The translations under genes and the position numbers were made by a program. Shown piece after piece: positions 16,002 to 40,937 of a stretch of DNA of 64,000 nucleotides. The notes under the pieces were generated by a model. It saw only the letters and a program-made list of their open reading frames with translations. It was not told the DNA's origin and did not search any database. The DNA is from Candidatus Magasanikiibacteriota bacterium (GTDB lineage: Bacteria > Patescibacteriota > Patescibacteriia > Magasanikbacterales > UBA922): positions 6,290-70,289 of the forward strand of contig DAOOSC010000001.1 of NCBI GenBank assembly GCA_035389585.1. The letters run 5' to 3'. Numbering within the stretch: position 1 is the stretch's first letter; every line of letters starts with the position of its first letter.

Positions 16002-17078
16002 ATGAAAATATTGGTTTGTGGCGGGGCCGGCTTCATCGGGTCCAATTTCATTCACTATATCCTCGAGAACTATCCGCATGATGAGGTGGTGAATTATGAT
16101 AAACTGACATATGCTGGCAATGAAGACAATTTGCGCGGTATTGAAGAAAACATTGAACTGAAATCACGCTACACTTTCATTCGCGGTGATATTTGTGATT
16201 ATAAACTATTATCGGAAGTCGTGGAGAAGTATCAGATTGATCATATTATCAATTTCGCGGCCGAGACGCATGTAGATCGCTCGATTTTTGGCGATTGTAC
16301 GGAATTTGTGATGGCGAATACTTTCGGTGTTTTGACAATTTTGAATATTTGTCGTCGTTTTCCGATTGCGAAATTTGTAAACGTGTCAACTGATGAGGTG
16401 TACGGAACATTGCAATTGGATTCTACTGAGAGGTTCACCGAATCGACCCCAATTTGCCCTAATATGCCGTATGCGGCGGCGAAAGCCGGAGGAGACATGC
16501 TCTGCCATTCGTATTTCGTCACCCATCGCATACCGGTGGTAGTCACGCATTGCTCCAATAACTATGGACCATTTCAGTATCCGGAAAAATTGATTCCATC
16601 TTCAGTGTTTCGTCTTTTGAAAAATAAACCGATCCTCATGCATGGCAACGGGAAAAATGTGCGTGATTGGATTCATGTGACGGATCATTGTCGGGCACTG
16701 GATTTAATGTTGCGAGCGGGTATTCCAGGTGAGGTGTATAACGTAGGTGTGGATAATGAGAGGAATAATTTGGAAATCGCCAAAATGATTTTGCGTATCA
16801 TGGGTAAGCCTGAGACGATGATTGAATTCGTCGAAGATCGCCCGGGTAATGACTTGCGCTACGCGATCGATGCTCAGAAAATCATGTCACTCGGATGGAA
16901 ACCGGAGTTTACACGTGATCAGTTTGAAGTCGGAATGTCTGAGACTATTAATTGGTATTTGACGCACACTGATTGGGTGCAGAAATTGTGGGAAAAACAT
17001 GATGACGCTTACAAGATCAATCATGCCCCGACACGTGAGGCACGAGAAAAAGAACAGCAAGCAAAGAAGGATATATAA
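16002..17078 (+). CDS. rfbB: dTDP-glucose 4,6-dehydratase
   Basis: The Rossmann motif 'ILVCGGAGFIGSNF', the catalytic 'YAAAKA', and 'TDEVYG' are SDR-extended RmlB hallmarks. Confidence 0.85.
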   Translation: MKILVCGGAGFIGSNFIHYILENYPHDEVVNYDKLTYAGNEDNLRGIEENIELKSRYTFIRGDICDYKLLSEVVEKYQIDHIINFAAETHVDRSIFGDCTEFVMANTFGVLTILNICRRFPIAKFVNVSTDEVYGTLQLDSTERFTESTPICPNMPYAAAKAGGDMLCHSYFVTHRIPVVVTHCSNNYGPFQYPEKLIPSSVFRLLKNKPILMHGNGKNVRDWIHVTDHCRALDLMLRAGIPGEVYNVGVDNERNNLEIAKMILRIMGKPETMIEFVEDRPGNDLRYAIDAQKIMSLGWKPEFTRDQFEVGMSETINWYLTHTDWVQKLWEKHDDAYKINHAPTREAREKEQQAKKDI

Positions 17079-17079
17079 T

Positions 17080-17487
17080 ATGGAATTAGTATTCAAAAAA
17101 TTGAATTTAAAAATTGTTAAAAATGAGCGAGCGATATATTCATTTGCCGAATTAAATGAATTTATTGATTTTGAGGTGAGACGAATCTATTTTTTACAAG
17201 ATTTTCACGCGGATACTGGACAGCATTGTCATAAAATTGAAAAAGAATTGTTCATCATGCAGTGCGGTACTTGTACGGCGATAATTGACCGAGGAAACGG
17301 AAAAGAAGAAATACTCATATCTGGTCCCGGTGATGCGATTTATGTGGGCGCTTATGTGTGGCATGGGTTCAAAGATATTTCTCCAGATGCTGTTCTCATG
17401 GCGCTTTCCTCGACCAATTATAATCCAGATCGGAGTGATTATGTGGAGGATTATGACGCATATAGAGAGATGATTACCAAATTATGA
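17080..17487 (+). CDS. WxcM/FdtA-like cupin, likely a dTDP-4-keto-6-deoxyhexose 3,4-ketoisomerase
   Basis: A cupin of about 135 aa with 'GQHCHK' (cf. RGxHAH) and a C-terminal 'SDYVEDYDAY' region resembling FdtA/QdtA. The start codon is 1 nt after the rfbB stop. Confidence 0.6.
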   Translation: MELVFKKLNLKIVKNERAIYSFAELNEFIDFEVRRIYFLQDFHADTGQHCHKIEKELFIMQCGTCTAIIDRGNGKEEILISGPGDAIYVGAYVWHGFKDISPDAVLMALSSTNYNPDRSDYVEDYDAYREMITKL

Positions 17488-18833
17488 TTCTTGATCGGGG
17501 TCAACCGGGGAGCTTCGAGCCACCACGTGAGAGCGGTAGGGTGCCTTTTTTTGGCAATCTCGATGTTCGCGATCGGTCGACGGAGTTAGACGAAGAAAGT
17601 GATTCGAATAAAATATTAGAAAATTTTTCTGATTTACGAGTGGTCGAAAATATGGTAGTTCAGAAAGGTTCGGACGGGGAGTATCTCGGGGTATTATCGC
17701 GATCTTTTGACAAATTATTGCGGGCCTCTGCTGGAAAAGAAATTGGAGAACTAAATGCTGACGACATGCGCATGCTCGTAGATAATGGTTTGCCACCGCT
17801 ATTTTTTTCGGAATTAGCGGGTGTATATTTTCATCAGAAAAATGATTTTGGTAATCGTATTGCAGGCATGCTCGTGGATGAGAATGGTTTCGGATCGAAT
17901 GTGGCGCTCGCTAACGGTTTGAATTGTCTCGCTTCATTCCAAAGTCGGCGCAAGCAACACGATGTGAGCCGTGAACTCAATCGACATGGTCTAGAAATTA
18001 TCAAGGAAGAAAATTCTCCAGAAGCGATGTGGCAGAGAATGAAAATTGAGCATGGTTTGGTCGACGCTCGGTCGCGTGGTGTTTTGCACGCTGACATGGT
18101 AGGCAAATTTGAAGACTTGCTTCGCAGGCGTGTTGAATTAGGTGATAATAATCATATCGGGCGGACAGAATTGGAAATTGCGCGTCTGTGTTTGGAATTA
18201 GGTGATTTCGGAAAAGCTCTACATTTTGTCGAACGGGCTCTAGCGAGTGCCACAAGTGTTCGTTATGCGAATCTTATTGTCGATACAGAACTTTTGGAAG
18301 TGAAAATTAGACGCGCGATGGGGGATTATCGCGGTTCGAGGAATTACTTTTTGAAAGCAGACGAATCGGGGCGTGATCTGGGTCCAGTGCGTGAGCCAGA
18401 AATTGAGGAAGCGGGGGAAGATTTAGAAAAGTATAAGGCGTCGGTTTTTTGTGCCGTACAGTTTCCAAACGGAAAATATTTAACTTCGATTAGTGAAGAT
18501 GGCACTGCAAACCCTGTTTTGGTTGAATTAGCAAATACCAAAAACGTCGAAGGTGGAATTCGTGAAGGATTAGAAAAACTACTCAATAGTTTACGTGATA
18601 TGTCAGGTCTAAAAGGGGAAGAAGGGGTGAGTATCTCGGTGAGGAACACGCGTTTGAAGTTTCAATACAAAGAAAATGTCGGTACCGAGGAAGCTCCGCA
18701 TCGAAATATTGGCTATGGGGTATTTTTGCCTGAAACAAGCCAAATCACCGAACTCTGTCGGGTACTTGACAAAAATTCAATTTTAGGTTATGGTATCACT
18801 GATTCTTGGTCGGAAAGTCCGGTGAAAGAGTGA
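17484..18833 (+). CDS. Hypothetical protein of 449 aa with no domain recognised
   Basis: A long clean ORF with host-like codon usage, whose start overlaps the fdtA-like stop (ATGA). The central region may be helical and repeat-like. It is inserted between dTDP-sugar genes. Confidence 0.55.
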   Translation: MILDRGQPGSFEPPRESGRVPFFGNLDVRDRSTELDEESDSNKILENFSDLRVVENMVVQKGSDGEYLGVLSRSFDKLLRASAGKEIGELNADDMRMLVDNGLPPLFFSELAGVYFHQKNDFGNRIAGMLVDENGFGSNVALANGLNCLASFQSRRKQHDVSRELNRHGLEIIKEENSPEAMWQRMKIEHGLVDARSRGVLHADMVGKFEDLLRRRVELGDNNHIGRTELEIARLCLELGDFGKALHFVERALASATSVRYANLIVDTELLEVKIRRAMGDYRGSRNYFLKADESGRDLGPVREPEIEEAGEDLEKYKASVFCAVQFPNGKYLTSISEDGTANPVLVELANTKNVEGGIREGLEKLLNSLRDMSGLKGEEGVSISVRNTRLKFQYKENVGTEEAPHRNIGYGVFLPETSQITELCRVLDKNSILGYGITDSWSESPVKE

Positions 18834-19011
18834 TATTTTACATAAATTACAAAAATGCTGGCAAATAGCTTGTCATTATTTTTGTGCCGACAATATCGAG
18901 ACGGTCTCGGCGTTGCCGGACACCATATTTCTGTGTCTGCGTAAGCGGAAGTGAAACAGGGATGTGGACGGACAATCTTTCCAACCCTAATTGGTGGGTA
19001 GGAGGATCGAG

Positions 19012-19752
19012 ATGGGATTGACTTTGAGAGAAATTCTGGCCCTCGAAGGCCAGACCAAGGCCGATGGTTTGAAGGATGCCCTTATCAAATTGGAGGGCCA
19101 CCCCTACAGCTCTGCGTTCGCGGGTGTGGTTGTCATCTACAAGGCCGCAGCTATGCTCCGACGCCTTGAGGAAGGGTACAACGTGGCGGAGGAGTCTATA
19201 AGACTCTTTGATGCGTTCATTGAGGTGATGAATCAGATGATCATTGATCTCGGATTCGTCGACCCAGAAGACAACCCTGACGACGAGACGCCACCTCCTG
19301 TGGAGACTCGGGAGCATGTCATCGCCGCACTTTTGAGTCATAACGTCGCCTCGGCCAACGCGGCAGTGAATGCCGATGACCCTGAGATGCAACGCGAGTG
19401 CAATCTCTGGTCGCTCAATATGTTGAATGGAGTTCCTGAGGATCAGCGTGACGATGACTGGCATGTCGTGTACGAGAAAGTCTGTGCTGGTCTTTACGAA
19501 GCGGGCCACATCGATTGGGACGAAGAAGGCTACAACGACCTTCTCCGCTCGATGACGGAACGTCATTCGAAGGATGCGGCGGGTCGCGCGGCTTTCCTGG
19601 CTCGCAAGTACATGGATGCGAGTCGGATCGATGAGGCCGTCGAAGTGCTTGCGCCTGTCGAAAAAGATGATGATTGGTCGGCTCCGAACCAGAAGGAAGC
19701 GGCCATGAAGCTTCTGGCCACCATTCGTGGCATCATCGCATCAGGCGCCTAG
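19012..19752 (+). CDS. Hypothetical acidic protein of 246 aa with atypical, GC-richer composition
   Basis: A GGAGGA RBS lies 5 nt upstream. Codon usage favours AAG/ATC/TTC/GAC, unlike the flanking genes that favour AAA/ATT/TTT/GAT. The opposite strand carries an overlapping 239-aa ORF, which I judge to be a spurious mirror. Confidence 0.55.
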   Translation: MGLTLREILALEGQTKADGLKDALIKLEGHPYSSAFAGVVVIYKAAAMLRRLEEGYNVAEESIRLFDAFIEVMNQMIIDLGFVDPEDNPDDETPPPVETREHVIAALLSHNVASANAAVNADDPEMQRECNLWSLNMLNGVPEDQRDDDWHVVYEKVCAGLYEAGHIDWDEEGYNDLLRSMTERHSKDAAGRAAFLARKYMDASRIDEAVEVLAPVEKDDDWSAPNQKEAAMKLLATIRGIIASGA

Positions 19753-19801
19753 CCAATTCATCTTGTGCATTTTCGTTCTTAGTGCTGATAAAGCGCTCGA
19801 A

Positions 19802-19836
19802 CCTCACACAGAACATTGTGTGGGGTATTTTATTTC
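19802..19836 (+). terminator. Rho-independent terminator
   Basis: Stem cctcacaca / tgtgtgggg with a 6-nt loop, followed by a T-rich tract. Confidence 0.6.
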
Positions 19837-19891
19837 AGGAAAGGTAACTTCACTTGTCAATTCTGATTTTTTGTGTTAAAGTATTCATAAT

Positions 19892-20767
19892 ATGAACATC
19901 AATAAAGCCCTAATTATTGGGGCGGCGGGAACACTCGGCACAGCCCTACAAACCGCGTTCAAAGGGAAAAAAATACCTTTTGTTGCCTGGGACAAGGCTG
20001 ATGGTGATATTTTAGACATGGAAGGCTATATTGCGAAAGTCCGTAATTTGCGACCGGATGTGATTTTTAATTGTGCGGCGATTAATAATGTGAACGGGAT
20101 TGAGACGGACGATAAAATGCTCACTTTAGCAAATATGATCAATGGTGAATTTCCCGGTAAACTGGGAATTCTTGCGGATGAGATTGGCGCGACATTAGTT
20201 CACTATTCATCGGACTATATTTTTCAGGGAGACAAAAATTCGCCATATTCTGAAACAGACATTGGCAATCCAATTTCGAAATACGGTGCAACAAAATTGC
20301 TCGGCGAAAATAGTTTATTAAAAACGGGAAAGAAATTCTATATTATCCGTTTATCACGGCTTTTTGGCGCGCGCGGAACCGGACCAGAATCGAAATTAAG
20401 TTTTGTCGATCTCATGCTTGATTTGGTGGAAAATAAAGGGAAGACGGAGTTAAATGTGGTGAATGATGAAATTGCATCACCTACCTACGCTCCCGATCTG
20501 GCTGGTCTGAGTATTGATATTGTGATGAAGGAATTACCTTACGGTACTTATCATGGCACAAATTCAGGCGAATGCAGTTGGTATCAATTTGCGGTCGGAA
20601 TTTTTAAATTAAAAGGTATTGATGTTAAGATTAATCCTGTCAAAGGCGAGTTTTTTCCTCGACCGGCACTACCGCCGCCATATTCAGTGTTGGCAAACAA
20701 TAAGTTACCGCACCAGCGAACATGGCAGGAAGCACTTGCGGAATATCTGAAGGATGAAGACAAATAA
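19892..20767 (+). CDS. rfbD: dTDP-4-dehydrorhamnose reductase
   Basis: The 'ALIIGAAGTLG' Rossmann motif, catalytic 'YGATK', and a length of about 290 aa typical of RmlD. Confidence 0.8.
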   Translation: MNINKALIIGAAGTLGTALQTAFKGKKIPFVAWDKADGDILDMEGYIAKVRNLRPDVIFNCAAINNVNGIETDDKMLTLANMINGEFPGKLGILADEIGATLVHYSSDYIFQGDKNSPYSETDIGNPISKYGATKLLGENSLLKTGKKFYIIRLSRLFGARGTGPESKLSFVDLMLDLVENKGKTELNVVNDEIASPTYAPDLAGLSIDIVMKELPYGTYHGTNSGECSWYQFAVGIFKLKGIDVKINPVKGEFFPRPALPPPYSVLANNKLPHQRTWQEALAEYLKDEDK

Positions 20768-20768
20768 T

Positions 20769-21659
20769 ATGAATTTATCCGTCATTATCGTCACGTACAA
20801 CACACTCACACACCAAAGTGATCTATTTCGTAGTTGTCTGCGCTCAATTTCTGACGGAGCAGATGGAATATCATTTGAAATTATTGTAGCCGATAACGGT
20901 TCGACTGATGATACTGTTGCCATGCTAAAGCGCGAGTTCTCAAATGTAAAAATTATTGAGAATGGCGCAAATTTAGGTTTTGGGCGTGCAAATAATATTG
21001 GTGCAAAAGAAGCGAGTGGTGATTATTTGCTTTTTTTGAATCCGGACAATATTGTCCAATCCGGCTCTCTGAAATATTTAGTCGATTGGATGCAGACACA
21101 TATGGATGTTGGTATCGTTGGACCGAAAATGATTGACCAGAACGGAAGTCTAAATAAAGATGCGACACCGCGTCGTTTCCCTGGATCGCTTGATCAGGTT
21201 GCGATTCTGCTGAAACTTTCTCACATGTTCCCCAAATTATTGTCTTCTTACATGTATGAAGATCGTGATTTCAATCAATCGGGTGAAGTGGATTCGGTGC
21301 GTGGGGCATTTATTTTCATGCGGCGTGAATTGTACACCAAAATGGGCTTTGCTTTCGATCCACGCTATTTTCTCTGGTTCGAAGATGTGGACACTTGTCG
21401 CGAGTGCTGGCGTCATGGGTATAAAGTAATGTATCTCACCGATGTTGCCTGTATTGATCACGTAAGCCAAACATTCAAAAAAATTGGTAATGTGTGGAAA
21501 CAGAAAAAATTTACCGAAAGTATGGTGGCTTATTTTCGCAAATGGCATTCAGTTCCGGCATGGTTATTGATTTTTCTGCTTCGTCCTATTGCCGTCGGGA
21601 TGGTAATTTTTCATGAATCAATTATGAACATTTTTCATCGCGAAAAAACTAAAATATAA
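20769..21659 (+). CDS. Glycosyltransferase family 2
   Basis: 'LSVIIVTYN', 'VADNGSTD' and 'NLGFGRANN' are GT2 GT-A signatures. An alternative start is at 20754. Confidence 0.85.
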   Translation: MNLSVIIVTYNTLTHQSDLFRSCLRSISDGADGISFEIIVADNGSTDDTVAMLKREFSNVKIIENGANLGFGRANNIGAKEASGDYLLFLNPDNIVQSGSLKYLVDWMQTHMDVGIVGPKMIDQNGSLNKDATPRRFPGSLDQVAILLKLSHMFPKLLSSYMYEDRDFNQSGEVDSVRGAFIFMRRELYTKMGFAFDPRYFLWFEDVDTCRECWRHGYKVMYLTDVACIDHVSQTFKKIGNVWKQKKFTESMVAYFRKWHSVPAWLLIFLLRPIAVGMVIFHESIMNIFHREKTKI

Positions 21660-21661
21660 AT

Positions 21662-22759
21662 ATGGCGACATTGTCTCTAAATACAATTTATCATCACGAG
21701 AAGGAATTGAAGTATTTGCCATTTTTGATCGAATCTCTAAAAAGACAAACCTTTCAGGATTTTGAAGTCAAGATTTTGAACAATGGTCTATCGACAGAGA
21801 TGTTTTCGAAGGTCGAGAACGCTTATCGCACACTTGGTGTCAATGTGGAAGTTGTGCAATCACCGACGAATATTGGATTTGCCGGTGGGCAGAATTTGCT
21901 TTTCAAAAAAACCAGCGCCGCCTATGTCTTGATGTTGAATAGCGATATGTATCTCATGCCAAATGTTTTACAGAATTGTGTAGATTTTTTGGAGAGGCAT
22001 AGAGAGGTTTTTGGTGTTTCAGTACGTTTGATGCGTTGGGATTTCGCGATCGTAGAGGCGGCGATGGCGGTGGGGTCAATTTCAGAACGGGCTGGTCTAG
22101 GTTTCACGAACTTTGTGGACGCGATCGGTATCAGACTCTTACGCAATCGACGCGCTGTCGAATGGCTCACGCGTGAAGAGTGGGTGGGGGATTCCGCCAA
22201 TCCGCATGTGGCGAAACTGTTTCAGCAGACCATGGTGGAAGTGTTCGGGGTGTCGGGGGCTATGCCGGTATTTCGTACGAGTGCTTTACAGAATGTGCTC
22301 TTGCCAGGCGGAGATATTCTCGATCCGACTTATCATAGCTATAAAGAAGATTTGGACATTGCTTACCGTCTCCGTAACGCTGGCTATACTTCCTATGTAT
22401 TGCTCGACACGGTGACATACCATGATCGCACGGCCGCTGGCCCGCGCGGACTTTCGGATTGGTCGGCCGCCCAGAATAAACAGTATCAGACGGATTATGT
22501 GCGGTATCATTCATACAAGAACCATTTGCGAACTTTATATAAAAACGAGTATTGGCAGAATTTTTTGATTGATTTCCCGTTCATATTTTGGTATGAGTTG
22601 AAAAAGTTTGGGTATTTCCTGTTCACAAATCCGGGAATGATAATTCGGGCCTGGTATGAAATTTTGAAGAACGGTAAATACACGTATGCGGCACGGCAGG
22701 CTATAAAAGCATCGCGCAAAACGCATTGGCGTGGTCTGAGGAGATGGTTTTATGTTTGA
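21662..22759 (+). CDS. Glycosyltransferase family 2 (rhamnosyltransferase-like)
   Basis: 'NIGFAGGQN' and 'MLNSDMY' are GT-A motifs. Confidence 0.75.
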   Translation: MATLSLNTIYHHEKELKYLPFLIESLKRQTFQDFEVKILNNGLSTEMFSKVENAYRTLGVNVEVVQSPTNIGFAGGQNLLFKKTSAAYVLMLNSDMYLMPNVLQNCVDFLERHREVFGVSVRLMRWDFAIVEAAMAVGSISERAGLGFTNFVDAIGIRLLRNRRAVEWLTREEWVGDSANPHVAKLFQQTMVEVFGVSGAMPVFRTSALQNVLLPGGDILDPTYHSYKEDLDIAYRLRNAGYTSYVLLDTVTYHDRTAAGPRGLSDWSAAQNKQYQTDYVRYHSYKNHLRTLYKNEYWQNFLIDFPFIFWYELKKFGYFLFTNPGMIIRAWYEILKNGKYTYAARQAIKASRKTHWRGLRRWFYV

Positions 22760-23579
22760 TATTTGCATCACCCTCGTCAACACAAAGGAAAAAAAAGAAA
22801 TTCAGACCGCGCTCGAAACTCTCGCGGTAGATTCGGTTAATTCGGGTTTGAATTGGCAGGTGGCAGTCGTGGATAACGCATCTGGCGATGGACTCGAGAC
22901 GGAGTTGAAAGCAAAATTTCCCAATGCTGTCTATATTCAACAAAACAAGAATCTCGGATTTGGCGCTTCTCACAACAAAGCGCTGTCCGCGGTTGAGGCT
23001 AAGTATTATTTTGTTTTGAATCCAGATACGGAATTTATGCTAGGGCAGAATTTCTTACGTCGCCTATATGATTTCATGGAAGCAAATTCGCATGTGGGTA
23101 TGGCCGGACCAAAGATTATTTATCCTGATGGTTCACTGCAATATTCTTGTTGGCGCTTTCCGACATTTCTCCAACCAATTTTTAGTCGCACGAAGTGGGG
23201 GAGAGTGGGTAAAGGGAAAATTATTGCCGATTGTTTTCTCATGAAGGATTTCGATCATGCATCGACCAAACCGGTAGATGCGATTATGGGTTCGGCGATG
23301 TTTGTGCGTCGTGAAGCGTACTTGGCGGTAGGAGGATTTGACGATCTGTTTTGGATGTATTTCGAAGACATGGATTGGTGCAAGCGAATGTGGGAGAAAA
23401 ACTGGGCGGTATATTTCGTGCACGATGTGGTGTTGAAACACGCGCACGGACGGGCTTCCGCCAAAGTGCCGGGTGTCGTGATGGCACTCATAAAAAACAA
23501 ATACGCCCGTGTTCATTTGGTTAGCTGGCTCAAGTATTTTTGGAAATGGCGTGGCAATCATAAATATTACGCAAATTAA
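22752..23579 (+). CDS. Glycosyltransferase family 2
   Basis: 'VVDNASGDG', 'NLGFGASHN' and 'VLNPDTEF' are GT2 motifs. Confidence 0.85.
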   Translation: MFDICITLVNTKEKKEIQTALETLAVDSVNSGLNWQVAVVDNASGDGLETELKAKFPNAVYIQQNKNLGFGASHNKALSAVEAKYYFVLNPDTEFMLGQNFLRRLYDFMEANSHVGMAGPKIIYPDGSLQYSCWRFPTFLQPIFSRTKWGRVGKGKIIADCFLMKDFDHASTKPVDAIMGSAMFVRREAYLAVGGFDDLFWMYFEDMDWCKRMWEKNWAVYFVHDVVLKHAHGRASAKVPGVVMALIKNKYARVHLVSWLKYFWKWRGNHKYYAN

Positions 23580-23580
23580 T

Positions 23581-24678
23581 ATGAAGAAAGTTGTCATAAT
23601 GTATCTATTGTGGTCGAATGAGCCAATGCGGTATCTCACTGATGCGATTCGGGGTGTTGCCGCTCAGTCATACCCGCGCGAGGGTTTGGAATTTTTGATT
23701 GTGTATAATTCGCATAAACCAGATGAACCTTCGGCCGTGCCGTATATCCGGTCAGAAATAGAAAAGAATTCCGCGCACTTGCCACACACGACAATTATTG
23801 AAAATGATAAGAATCTCGGTTTTTCCGGTGGAAATAATTTCGGAATGCGTTGGGCGGTGGAACATGGTTTCGATTATGTATTTTTGCATAATGGCGATGG
23901 TTATCTCGGAGAGAATTGCGTCAAGGCGCTGGTCGAAGTGATGGACGCCGATCCGAAGATTGGTGCGGCACAATCTCTAGTTTTGCTCCATCCCGCTGTG
24001 GACAGCATCAATTCGGCTGGTAATTGTCTGCATTTTCTCGGTTTTGGATATTGTGATTTCTACAAAAAGAAAAAAAATGAAGTAGTACTTCCGGCTGTGA
24101 AGGATGTGGCCTACGCATCCGGCGCCGCGATTATGATGCGGACTGATTTATTACAGAAATTTGGCTATTGGGACGAAGATTATTTCATGTATCATGAGGA
24201 TACTGATTATTCGTTGCGTTTGTTCACAGCGGGCTATCGCAATGTCATGGTGAAAGCTTCCGAATTTTTTCATAAATATGAATTTTCCAAATCAATTTCA
24301 AAATATTTTTGGATGGAACGAAATCGTTATGCGATCCTGCTTTTGTTTTTTTCTTGCCCGACTTTGATACTCATTCTACCGATGTTTATTGTCATGGAGA
24401 TTGCTCTGTGGTTTTTCGCTTGGCGAGGCGGTTGGGTGGGGGAGAAGTGGAAGGTGTATAAGTATTGGCTGAAGTGGGGGTCGTGGAAGTTCTGGTTAGT
24501 GAAGAGGAGAAAATTGATGGCGGATCGAGTTACTTCGGATCGCAAATTATTGCGTGCGATGGTGGCGGTAATTAAATTTCAAGAAGCGGCGATTGAAAAT
24601 CCCGTGCTGAAATATATTGGCAATCCGGTAATGTTCGTATATTATTGGTTATTGTCACGCGTGGTTGTGTGGTGGTAG
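23581..24678 (+). CDS. Glycosyltransferase family 2 with a C-terminal membrane segment
   Basis: 'NLGFSGGNN' and 'LHNGDGY' are GT2 motifs, and there are C-terminal TM helices. The in-frame ATG lies 1 nt after the upstream stop. Confidence 0.8.
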   Translation: MKKVVIMYLLWSNEPMRYLTDAIRGVAAQSYPREGLEFLIVYNSHKPDEPSAVPYIRSEIEKNSAHLPHTTIIENDKNLGFSGGNNFGMRWAVEHGFDYVFLHNGDGYLGENCVKALVEVMDADPKIGAAQSLVLLHPAVDSINSAGNCLHFLGFGYCDFYKKKKNEVVLPAVKDVAYASGAAIMMRTDLLQKFGYWDEDYFMYHEDTDYSLRLFTAGYRNVMVKASEFFHKYEFSKSISKYFWMERNRYAILLLFFSCPTLILILPMFIVMEIALWFFAWRGGWVGEKWKVYKYWLKWGSWKFWLVKRRKLMADRVTSDRKLLRAMVAVIKFQEAAIENPVLKYIGNPVMFVYYWLLSRVVVWW

Positions 24679-40464: not shown

Positions 40465-40499
40465 TTTTAATAAAAAAGGAACAGCTTCGTCTGTTCCTG
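40465..40499 (-). terminator. Rho-independent terminator for the minus-strand gene, possibly bidirectional
   Basis: Stem ggaacag / ctgttcc followed on the minus strand by TTTTTTATT. Confidence 0.65.
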
Positions 40500-40505
40500 T
40501 GGGGT

Positions 40506-40838
40506 CTATGGGCGCGTTCCATTTGCCGCCTTTTTTTGTATCTTGGCGTATCGATTGACCGTGAATTCATACATGATGAGGATTTGTCCGATGTGGATCA
40601 TTTGGGCTTCATGGACAGGGATACCTTTTTCATATAATTTTGGTGCGAGAGCCTTTGAGATTTTATTCCTTGATATCGCTCTTTGTCGCTCATCTGGTCG
40701 GTAGCCGTGCCGGACGATGAGACCGTCGATCTGGCAAAGGATCGGCCCTTGTTCAGTCTCACCTTCGTGAATGACGAAAGTGATACTGGGTTTTCCCCCC
40801 TTGTCAGTGGTCTCTTGAATTTGAACGTACATTTCCAT
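40506..40838 (-). CDS. Hypothetical protein of 110 aa
   Basis: A clean ORF that ends 6 nt before a strong terminator. No domain was recognised. Confidence 0.5.
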   Translation of the reverse strand: MEMYVQIQETTDKGGKPSITFVIHEGETEQGPILCQIDGLIVRHGYRPDERQRAISRNKISKALAPKLYEKGIPVHEAQMIHIGQILIMYEFTVNRYAKIQKKAANGTRP

Positions 40839-40937
40839 TTGAAAACCTCCGAATTTAGTTAATTACAATATAGCGGAAAATTGCACATTTGTCAACGTTG
40901 GCATATACTATATAAGCTAAAGCTTAATTAAAAAAAT

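Follow-up and report, generated by a model that had tools for sequence, protein, structure and literature searches.

The window analysed here is a 64,000-nucleotide stretch of a Patescibacteria genome, and the question concerns two open reading frames (ORFs), of 449 and 246 amino acids, that lie among its dTDP-sugar genes. On the + strand the order is HIT, NUDIX, SLT transglycosylase, a PGI-like SIS protein, RfbB, an FdtA-like cupin, the 449-aa ORF, the 246-aa ORF, RmlD and four GT2-type glycosyltransferases. We refer to the longer gene, which encodes a tetratricopeptide repeat (TPR) protein, as TPR449, and to the shorter gene and its family as FAM. The original prediction for this DNA described both ORFs and the rfbB, fdtA, rmlD and four-GT2 flanks as we find them, and read the pair as a cassette that was probably acquired by horizontal transfer. 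The genes that matter are as follows.

16002-17078, + strand: rfbB, upstream boundary of the insertion site (TIGR01181 above cut-off; Pfam, NCBIfam)
17080-17487, + strand: fdtA-like cupin gene, upstream boundary of the insertion site (Pfam, NCBIfam)
17484-18833, + strand: TPR449, 449-aa TPR-containing protein (ORF; TPR_12 match)
19012-19752, + strand: FAM, acidic 246-aa TPR-like alpha-solenoid, GC-rich (ORF, profile search, AlphaFold2)
19892-20767, + strand: rmlD, downstream boundary of the insertion site (Pfam RmlD_sub_bind, E = 3.7e-70; TIGR01214, 216 bits)
20754-24678, + strand: four GT2-type glycosyltransferases (Pfam/NCBIfam annotation)

Two separate genes at the junction between FdtA and RmlD

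The window was compared with loci from related genomes (L001-L099), part of which were located in GTDB genomes with RfbB as the anchor. In L014, L018 and the Magasanikbacteria genome L017 no gene separates FdtA from RmlD, so that the junction in the window carries inserted DNA. To this extent the proposed insertion into the dTDP-sugar operon stands; the two genes are nevertheless not one cassette, because TPR449 is coupled to fdtA and native in its GC content at third codon positions (GC3, 0.378) and because FAM occurs without TPR449. The start of TPR449 overlaps the fdtA stop by 4 nt (ATGA), as it does in L001, and we predict that the gene is translationally coupled to fdtA as part of the native rfbB-fdtA operon. 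Its product had been described as lacking any recognisable domain, which does not hold: residues 210-257 match the curated model TPR_12 (30.7 bits vs. a cut-off of 30.1), and the public annotation of the 449-aa protein is 'tetratricopeptide repeat protein [Candidatus Magasanikbacteria bacterium]'. Homologues of TPR449 were found in a sister lineage alone (60-61% identity), and to judge from these relatives the gene is clade-specific, restricted to the window's own clade. By hhalign, its residues 144-253 align with the conserved core of the FAM profile at E = 1e-3 and a probability of 21%, and TPR449 may be a divergent, extended paralogue of FAM.

The order HIT-NUDIX-SLT-PGI-RfbB-FdtA-TPR449-FAM-RmlD is identical in L001-L004, and in L005 FAM is likewise followed by RmlD. 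More distant relatives retain the position of FAM: it lies between FdtA and RmlD in L008, L009, L088, L090, L091 and L096, none of which has TPR449, and in the last four of these it directly follows FdtA. Identity to the window proteins in these six loci is 57-76% for FdtA and 31-42% for FAM, and the pairwise identities of FAM and FdtA correlate (Mantel r = 0.66, p = 0.004), FAM thus tracking its neighbour. The junction can also do without the gene: L011, L014, L017 and L018 have RfbB-FdtA-RmlD but no FAM, and in L010, L012 and L013 something unrelated takes its place. Neither of the properties by which a component of the dTDP-6-deoxyhexose pathway would be recognised, homology to an enzyme or presence wherever the pathway occurs, was found for FAM. 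No integrase, transposase or phage gene is present among the genes annotated in the FAM loci, and no tRNA flanks the window locus. With FAM at the same site in all relatives found (its occurrences outside the sugar locus are given below), no mobility genes and a stable GC3, the unit lacks the marks of a recently acquired genomic island.

Some observations on the loci themselves may be added. L009 has the order HIT, NUDIX, PGI, RfbB, FdtA, FAM, RmlD and four GT2 genes. This locus and L008 (CAZRUM010000002.1 and CAZHTA010000005.1, respectively) are labelled 'uncultured Gammaproteobacteria', but they combine low GC with the window's Patescibacteria-type gene order, and the label is probably wrong. 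In L008, an HD-domain protein (1880-2818; HD_4, weak match) fills the position of TPR449, and in L091 an extra, moderately GC-rich NUDIX gene follows FAM; what lies next to FAM varies from locus to locus and is in many cases nucleotide-related (HD, NUDIX, Fic). No homology was found among these variable neighbours (TPR449, HD, NUDIX, Fic and orphans).

FAM has the signals expected of a gene that is transcribed on its own, listed here in the order in which they occur.

18766-18794, + strand: promoter-like site TTGACA-17-TATGGT, candidate FAM promoter, within the last 25 codons of TPR449 (consensus scan)
18859-18884, + strand: weak hairpin and U run right after the TPR449 stop, terminator-like (read from sequence)
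18883-18922, + strand: predicted leader hairpin P1, with the palindrome GAGACGGTCTC (18898-18908) as its tip (RNAalifold, three orthologues)
18923-18967, + strand: predicted leader hairpin P2 (RNAalifold: 17 pairs, all kept in three sequences; single-sequence fold agrees)
18975-19007, + strand: predicted leader hairpin P3, in which AUCUUUCC is paired with the Shine-Dalgarno sequence GGAGGAU (RNAalifold: two pairs changed on both sides)
19001-19006, + strand: Shine-Dalgarno (SD) sequence GGAGGA, 5 nt before the ATG (sequence; conserved in orthologues)
19801-19836, + strand: predicted intrinsic terminator of the FAM unit, an 11-bp stem (19801-19826) followed by a T run (stem and T run conserved in L001 and L005)

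The ribosome-binding site and the terminator are those that the original prediction had pointed out. In the window, L001, L005 and L006 the -35 hexamer is invariant, and so are the first four bases of the -10 element, TATG (L006, with TATGTT, differs in the last two); the region is conserved at synonymous positions, while third positions of TPR449 are overall only ~42% identical, which suggests that 18766-18794 may be under dual coding and regulatory constraint. The inverted repeat TGRCAA-N5-TTGTCA with its T-rich run behind the TPR449 stop (TTATTTTTG; in L001 CTATTTTTG) is conserved in L001 and L005. Across the window, L001 and L005, the 178-nt spacer 5' of FAM is 83-88% identical without indels, vs. 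59-68% for other spacers and ~47% for coding third positions. The leader is predicted to be ~180-210 nt long and to form three hairpins; of its 43 predicted pairs three are changed on both sides (fold z-score -2.4, from three sequences only). One of these lies in P1, where A-U has become G-C. The palindrome that had been noted as a feature in its own right is indeed present, as merely the tip of this longer hairpin, and it is lost in orthologues that keep the stem. The SD is predicted to be unpaired with a probability of 0.01-0.08 in the window, L001 and L005, and of 0.03-0.3 in L010, L088 and L093. A search of 18700-19950 against Rfam 15 gave chance-level hits only (E = 2.4-6.4; 14-19 bits vs. 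the 40-49 required), and no family reached its gathering threshold anywhere in the window. Distant FAM genes repeat the layout, with a perfect TTGACA, a 17-nt spacer, TAnnnT, a hairpin-containing leader and a terminator, their leaders being unalignable with that of the window. On these signals FAM would be an autonomous transcription unit, separate from TPR449. At four loci (L091:5866-5925, L093:1333-1385, L096:~530-580 and L099:~55-105) the -10 element (TAGGAT, TAGAGT or TAGCGT) also serves as the 5' arm of a terminator-like hairpin with a U run, a compact, overlapping terminator-promoter arrangement.

Composition, family and fold of FAM

The FAM gene is the top compositional outlier of the window. 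Its GC content is 0.55 and its GC3 0.638, against a mean of 0.443 (sd 0.043) for 56 window ORFs, i.e. ~4.6 sd off; sliding-window GC across the gene is 0.54-0.57, and the FAM region is the sole 600-bp stretch of the 64 kb that lies >0.10 above median GC. The aberrant composition and codon bias claimed for the 246-aa gene are thus confirmed, with AAG, ATC, TTC, GCC, GTC and TAC enriched (TAC being 7/7 Tyr codons). When the protein is recoded with background codon usage, the expected GC3 is 0.452 and the expected GC 0.489; the excess of GC is thus roughly half synonymous, the other half lying in the amino-acid content, which is the most GC-type in the window (GARP 0.28, FYMINK 0.22). GC pressure therefore also shapes the amino-acid content of FAM, and acts on nucleotides rather than on codon choice alone.

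This composition is not peculiar to the window. FAM has a GC3 of 0.64 in the window, 0.67 in L001, 0.65 in L005, 0.70 in L008, 0.71 in L009, 0.63 in L088, 0.55 in L090, 0.69 in L091, 0.71 in L093, 0.91 in L096, 0.76 in L097 and 0.80 in L099, so that 12 of the 13 members examined fall between 0.55 and 0.91, with adjacent genes at ~0.21-0.44. The only AT-type member is L095:211-930 (GC3 0.41, FYMINK 0.35, Lys-rich), which has a Fic-domain neighbour outside the sugar locus and shows that the family can lose the GC-rich trait. Orthologues at 65-69% identity and in identical synteny have a GC3 of 0.65-0.67 at a pS of 0.62-0.76, and for members that are 30-45% identical the range is 0.55-0.91. Between the window and its nearest relatives, synonymous sites are saturated in FAM and in all flanking genes (pS 0.62-0.82), and a signature of transfer should already have decayed. 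Among the three closest FAM genes, polarised synonymous changes number 36 from strong to weak (S>W) and 20 from weak to strong (W>S), while in the RmlD control W>S changes number 20 and S>W changes 11. Parsimony is known to be biased from common to rare states. The mirror-image changes of FAM and RmlD reflect this bias, and there is no net decay of FAM toward AT; each gene appears to be at its own compositional equilibrium. We conclude that the GC-rich composition is a maintained property of the FAM family and not the trace of a recent transfer.

Three possible causes of the composition were considered and dropped. Since the third positions of the sense frame are free to vary, an overlapping antisense gene was rejected. 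Selection for a particular mRNA fold was set aside, as the z-scores are inconsistent. Expression-linked codon bias was also set aside: the GC3 of MreB, GreA and ClpB is 0.43-0.49 vs. 0.64, a weak test in a window that has no ribosomal-protein genes.

FAM is a real coding gene under purifying selection, as the nucleotide identity of orthologues by codon position (0.77/0.83/0.47) and a dN/dS of ~0.14 show. A word-based search of 5.8 billion proteins returned two relatives alone (69% and 65% identity), and hmmsearch against 1.8 billion representative proteins gave 36 hits, of which ~30 are true FAM clusters of 214-311 aa that align over most of their length. A three-sequence alignment searched against GTDB genomes found nothing, and a metagenome scan recovered L001 only. 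K156, E163, G191, R192 and Q227 are invariant in the family alignment, and its motifs are HNAAS, NGN, RDDDW..V.EKV..GL.E.GH, SKDxAGR..FLA and SAPNQ. The protein is indeed D/E-rich (D+E 19%, pI 4.47) and has DDDW twice; of the DW/DDW repeats to which the original prediction had drawn attention, however, the first DDDW alone is conserved as a motif in the family, and outside the window clade the acidic insert at residues 80-98 is absent.

An AlphaFold2 model built on a 31-sequence alignment has a pLDDT of 95.4, a pTM of 0.91 and 11 helices, and replaces a poor earlier model from three sequences (pLDDT 62). It is a solenoid of antiparallel helix pairs that can be superposed on solved TPR domains. 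Foldseek found no PDB match for the model at E <= 1e-3 (TM-scores at most 0.5) and none at that level among viral models (BFVD), where the best hits, at E = 0.03, were generic giant-virus TPR proteins. Of the curated TPR models only TPR_19 responded, with 17 bits vs. a cut-off of 25, and there was no match in NCBIfam; neither FAM nor TPR449 had one in PHROGs or, at E <= 1, in PADLOC. A tblastn search of phage genomes and two IMG/VR scans found no FAM relatives. No enzyme homology was found, nor the helix-turn-helix (HTH) or phosphatase fusion of an RRNPP-type receptor. FAM is thus a previously undescribed family in Patescibacteria-type contexts, a cytoplasmic, acidic TPR-like module, and in the model its conserved polar constellation would fit the binding of a protein, peptide or small ligand, not catalysis.

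Shine-Dalgarno use and competing explanations

The SD of FAM is itself unusual. In the window and nine related loci (L008-L017, L091 and L097 being those named), an SD 5-mer at -18 to -4 is present in 3 of 187 AT-type ORFs, whereas among the accessory genes of GC type it precedes 18 of 25 (Fisher p = 1e-17). Native genes have A/T-rich upstream regions; most of the GC-rich accessory genes carry a normally spaced GGAGG. Promoters do not separate the two groups, those of FAM (TTGACA-N17-TAnnnT) being of the same style as native rmlD promoters; the GC-rich genes differ from native ones in composition and translation signal alone. The scarcity of SD sites in native genes fits a report on Parcubacteria, in which an anti-SD motif is detectable in only 48% of 16S rRNAs, Magasanikbacteria not being stated (PMC9297842).

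The GC-type set comprises FAM, a second family (FAM2) with a small basic ORF, adjoining NUDIX and T2SSE-like genes, and several orphans. FAM2 is an unrelated family of 190-220 aa with a GC3 of 0.71-0.85 and no Pfam match, which occupies the same junction between FdtA and RmlD in L010, L012 and L013, in another clade of Patescibacteria. Its islands (L010:11787-12800, L012:12607-13640 and L013:11673-13190) have a GC content of 0.60-0.69 and consist of a promoter, a short leader with a hairpin, FAM2, a basic ORF of ~70 aa and a terminator, to which L013 adds a GC-rich T2SSE-N-like gene. In L011 the junction is free of the FAM2 island, and in a comparison by eye with this locus no direct repeats or att-like borders were seen.

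Small orphan ORFs that are likewise GC-rich (GC3 0.65-0.75) are scattered among the AT-rich core genes of related genomes, at L097:3642-4145 (+), L097:10408-10992 (-), L010:4054-4332 (-) and L013:4005-4298 (-), the last two being homologous to each other and led by an SD. The window has a second autonomous module at 40470-40900 on the - strand, opposite to its neighbours and with GreA upstream. It consists of an orphan ORF of 110 aa (40506-40838) without a Pfam match, a TTGACA-17-TATATT promoter, GGAGG 7 nt before the ATG and a terminator; at 0.505, its GC3 ranks in the top four of the window. On the native side, rmlD has a promoter-like site, TTGTCA-17-TAAAGT, at 19854-19882 (+ strand; consensus scan; conserved in L001 and L005). 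Its -10 ends 9 nt before the ATG at 19892, and the predicted mRNA is nearly leaderless; several further window genes have similarly short, A/T-rich upstream regions. Among the flanking proteins, RfbB (window 16002-17078 vs. L001:3999-5075) is 96% identical despite a pS of 0.75, other proteins being 51-86% identical, and purifying selection on RfbB is unusually strong. The window as a whole (1-64000) yielded no tRNA or rRNA gene and no gene of any other Rfam family.

The reading that we favour, and whose chances of being correct we put at about even, is that TPR449 and FAM are separate, and that FAM is an old, autonomous, GC-maintained and SD-led accessory module. Its arrival at the FdtA-RmlD junction would date back to a remote ancestor, and from then on it would have been passed down together with its flanks. 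FAM would then be one of a class of GC-rich, SD-carrying accessory genes in genomes whose core genes are AT-rich and SD-less. Core mRNAs would initiate on A/U-rich, unstructured starts, a route that the GC-rich, structured FAM mRNA could not use, so that it would depend on SD pairing. P3 may hide the SD until the leader refolds, in which case FAM would be made under particular conditions only. The protein might serve as an adaptor, or bind another protein, a peptide or a nucleotide sugar, and could do so in the dTDP-sugar/glycosyltransferase pathway encoded next to it; the suggestion that it is a novel accessory factor of the glycan pathway is a possible one.

Several points weigh against this reading. 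Position is the only link between FAM and the glycan pathway; the gene also occurs elsewhere, by RuvB and an HD gene (L097), by a Fic gene (L095) and by a lectin-like gene (L093), and some lineages do without it altogether. DNA-level examination covers 13 of the ~30 family clusters. The promoter, the terminator and the leader structure are predictions, the covariation of the leader comes from three sequences that are 83-88% identical, and in L008, L009, L090, L097 and L099 the SD is not sequestered (probability of being unpaired 0.56-0.82). Compared with synonymous permutations, the structure of FAM mRNAs is inconsistent (z = -0.3, -1.0, -3.1, -3.7 and -0.3), and any selection would therefore be on GC content, not on one fold. 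As for the ribosome, the window and four loci were searched for an rRNA from which the anti-SD could be read, and none is present. Internal GGAGG is mildly depleted in native genes (z = -2.2), and so is its complement CCTCC (z = -3.0); since both are depleted, the depletion is uninformative on a working anti-SD.

The same observations admit other explanations, of which re-seeding, in our view unlikely, fares best. GC-rich, SD-led genes would circulate in an unsampled, GC-rich and SD-using reservoir, such as a plasmid, a phage or the bacterial host of episymbionts, and would often replace the chromosomal copies. This would account for unrelated GC-rich, SD-led genes at one junction (FAM, and FAM2 with its basic ORF), at times alongside a NUDIX (L091) or T2SSE-like (L013) gene, and it is in keeping with the architecture of an autonomous module, the other contexts of FAM (L093, L095, L097) and a Mantel r of just 0.66. 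On the other hand, no reservoir was found and there is no match in phage genomes, IMG/VR or BFVD; the flanks are AT-rich in every FAM context examined, the TTGACA-N17-TAnnnT promoters are native in style, and position is conserved across deep divergence.

A second alternative, which we find distinctly unlikely, is GC-biased gene conversion at a recombination hot spot in the surface-glycan locus, in which case the composition would have no selective meaning and FAM would be a fast-evolving accessory TPR protein. FAM does evolve much faster than its flanks (30-45% identity vs. 57-86% for FdtA), its amino-acid content is shifted too, as a nucleotide-level force predicts, and L095, in another context, is AT-type. 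Against this, the sharp GC boundaries match the transcription unit, leaving the fdtA 3' end and the rmlD 5' end unaffected, FAM is GC-rich also off the glycan locus (L097, L093), and the co-occurring SD sites are left unexplained. Moreover, conversion effects reported in bacteria amount to a few percent of GC3, not to a rise from 0.4 to 0.9.

The original prediction had also offered an immunity-like or anti-defence protein as an identity, to which a DNA mimic may be added. The low pI, the acidic content, the autonomous module and neighbours elsewhere that include Fic, HD and NUDIX genes would suit such a role. The searches of PADLOC, PHROGs, phage genomes, IMG/VR and BFVD gave no match; the fold is a TPR solenoid and no known DNA mimic, no conserved toxin or defence gene lies alongside, the neighbours being non-homologous between loci, and the acidic insert at residues 80-98 is clade-specific. 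We regard this identity as very unlikely.

Recent transfer of a two-gene cassette from a GC-richer donor, with a GC excess that has yet to ameliorate, is hardly more than a slight prospect. It draws on the strongly atypical composition, on the adjacency of FdtA and RmlD elsewhere and on the gene's own expression signals. TPR449, however, is native in composition and coupled to fdtA, and FAM is in the same place despite saturated synonymous sites, with an unshrunk GC excess and a divergence that tracks FdtA; S>W changes show no net excess over the bias of the control gene, and there is no mobility gene among the annotated genes and no donor among 1.8 billion representative proteins. Recent acquisition is thus already refuted for the most part. 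Least credible of all these alternatives is a second function on the DNA or RNA, either an antisense ORF (18847-19566, - strand, 239 aa) or a large structured RNA, for while long codon-aligned antisense ORFs occur in every island examined, A is depleted at third positions and TTA, CTA and TCA codons are rare, sense third positions vary as freely as in the flanks (identity 0.47, pS 0.62-0.73) with no constraint on the antisense first position, the codon rarity is expected in any GC-rich gene, and there is neither an Rfam match nor a consistent excess of mRNA structure.

If FAM is an old, GC-maintained module, one may go further and ask whether a single chromosome holds two gene 'dialects', an AT-rich, SD-less core and GC-rich, SD-led accessory genes (FAM, FAM2 and the orphans), the latter forming a composition-coded, leader-gated translational regulon of which FAM would be the most conserved member. 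The composition of the accessory genes would be actively kept up, since it would place their mRNAs under a translation regime of their own, one that depends on the SD. We think this unlikely. In a radical version, which would be extremely improbable, the accessory genes, once transferred to a bacterial host, would be expressed there and for this reason retain its dialect, much as T-DNA genes retain signals of the plant. A literature search for GC-rich, SD-bearing gene sets in Patescibacteria and for non-ameliorating genes found no such report.

These data matter because atypical composition is routinely taken as evidence of recent transfer, and FAM stays GC-rich (GC3 up to 0.91) in AT-rich genomes despite saturated synonymous sites. 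If this is general, composition-based transfer calls in Patescibacteria would be unreliable, and a force other than genome-wide mutation bias would set the composition of individual genes. The choice of start sites by the ribosomes of reduced bacteria, including their use of the anti-SD, would become testable with natural SD-plus and SD-minus genes. In addition, a new TPR-like family with a confident structural model is defined, and the main surface-glycan locus of these organisms, which live attached to other cells, is identified as a hot spot at which accessory modules gather.

Relation to known systems

Among SD-sequestering leaders, such as RNA thermometers and the expression platforms of riboswitches, the predicted FAM leader is alike in that a pyrimidine stretch upstream of the SD pairs with it in the last hairpin and that pairs are kept by two-sided changes; unlike the leaders of known families, it has no Rfam match and is seen in three sequences. 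The protein is comparable to TPR and kinesin-light-chain-like alpha-solenoids (BtubC 5o01, KLC1, CDC27, the OGT TPR domain and Rap/PlcR), to which it is only 7-15% identical, and its invariant polar set (K156, E163, R192, Q227, H110, N131 and D188) lies outside the TPR consensus. RRNPP-type TPR receptors (Rap, PlcR, NprR, AimR) are fused to an HTH or phosphatase effector and have a small signalling-peptide gene next to them, whereas FAM has no attached HTH, phosphatase or enzyme domain.

According to the model of Lawrence and Ochman, horizontally acquired islands reportedly ameliorate to the composition of their host. FAM shares with such islands an atypical GC content and codon usage in a discrete segment of a surface-polysaccharide locus, but its composition is stable, there are no mobility genes, tRNA or att sites, and no donor lineage is detectable. 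Phage morons are independent transcription units added between two phage genes (PMC3594210). Like the morons of Cumby et al. (2012), FAM consists of one ORF, has its own predicted promoter and terminator and is located between genes that are adjacent in relatives and unlike it in composition. It differs from morons in that it resides in a chromosomal sugar operon with neither phage genes nearby nor phage homologues, is inherited with its flanks and is GC-richer than the genome of its host.

Finally, Bacteroidetes have an SD-poor translation with few SD-bearing, specially regulated genes. With them, and with those Parcubacteria in whose 16S rRNA no anti-SD motif is detectable, the loci analysed here share core genes without an SD (3/187) and a small set of genes with a strong one. 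Unlike in Bacteroidetes, this SD-bearing set consists of GC-rich, lineage-specific accessory genes and not of ribosomal-protein genes.

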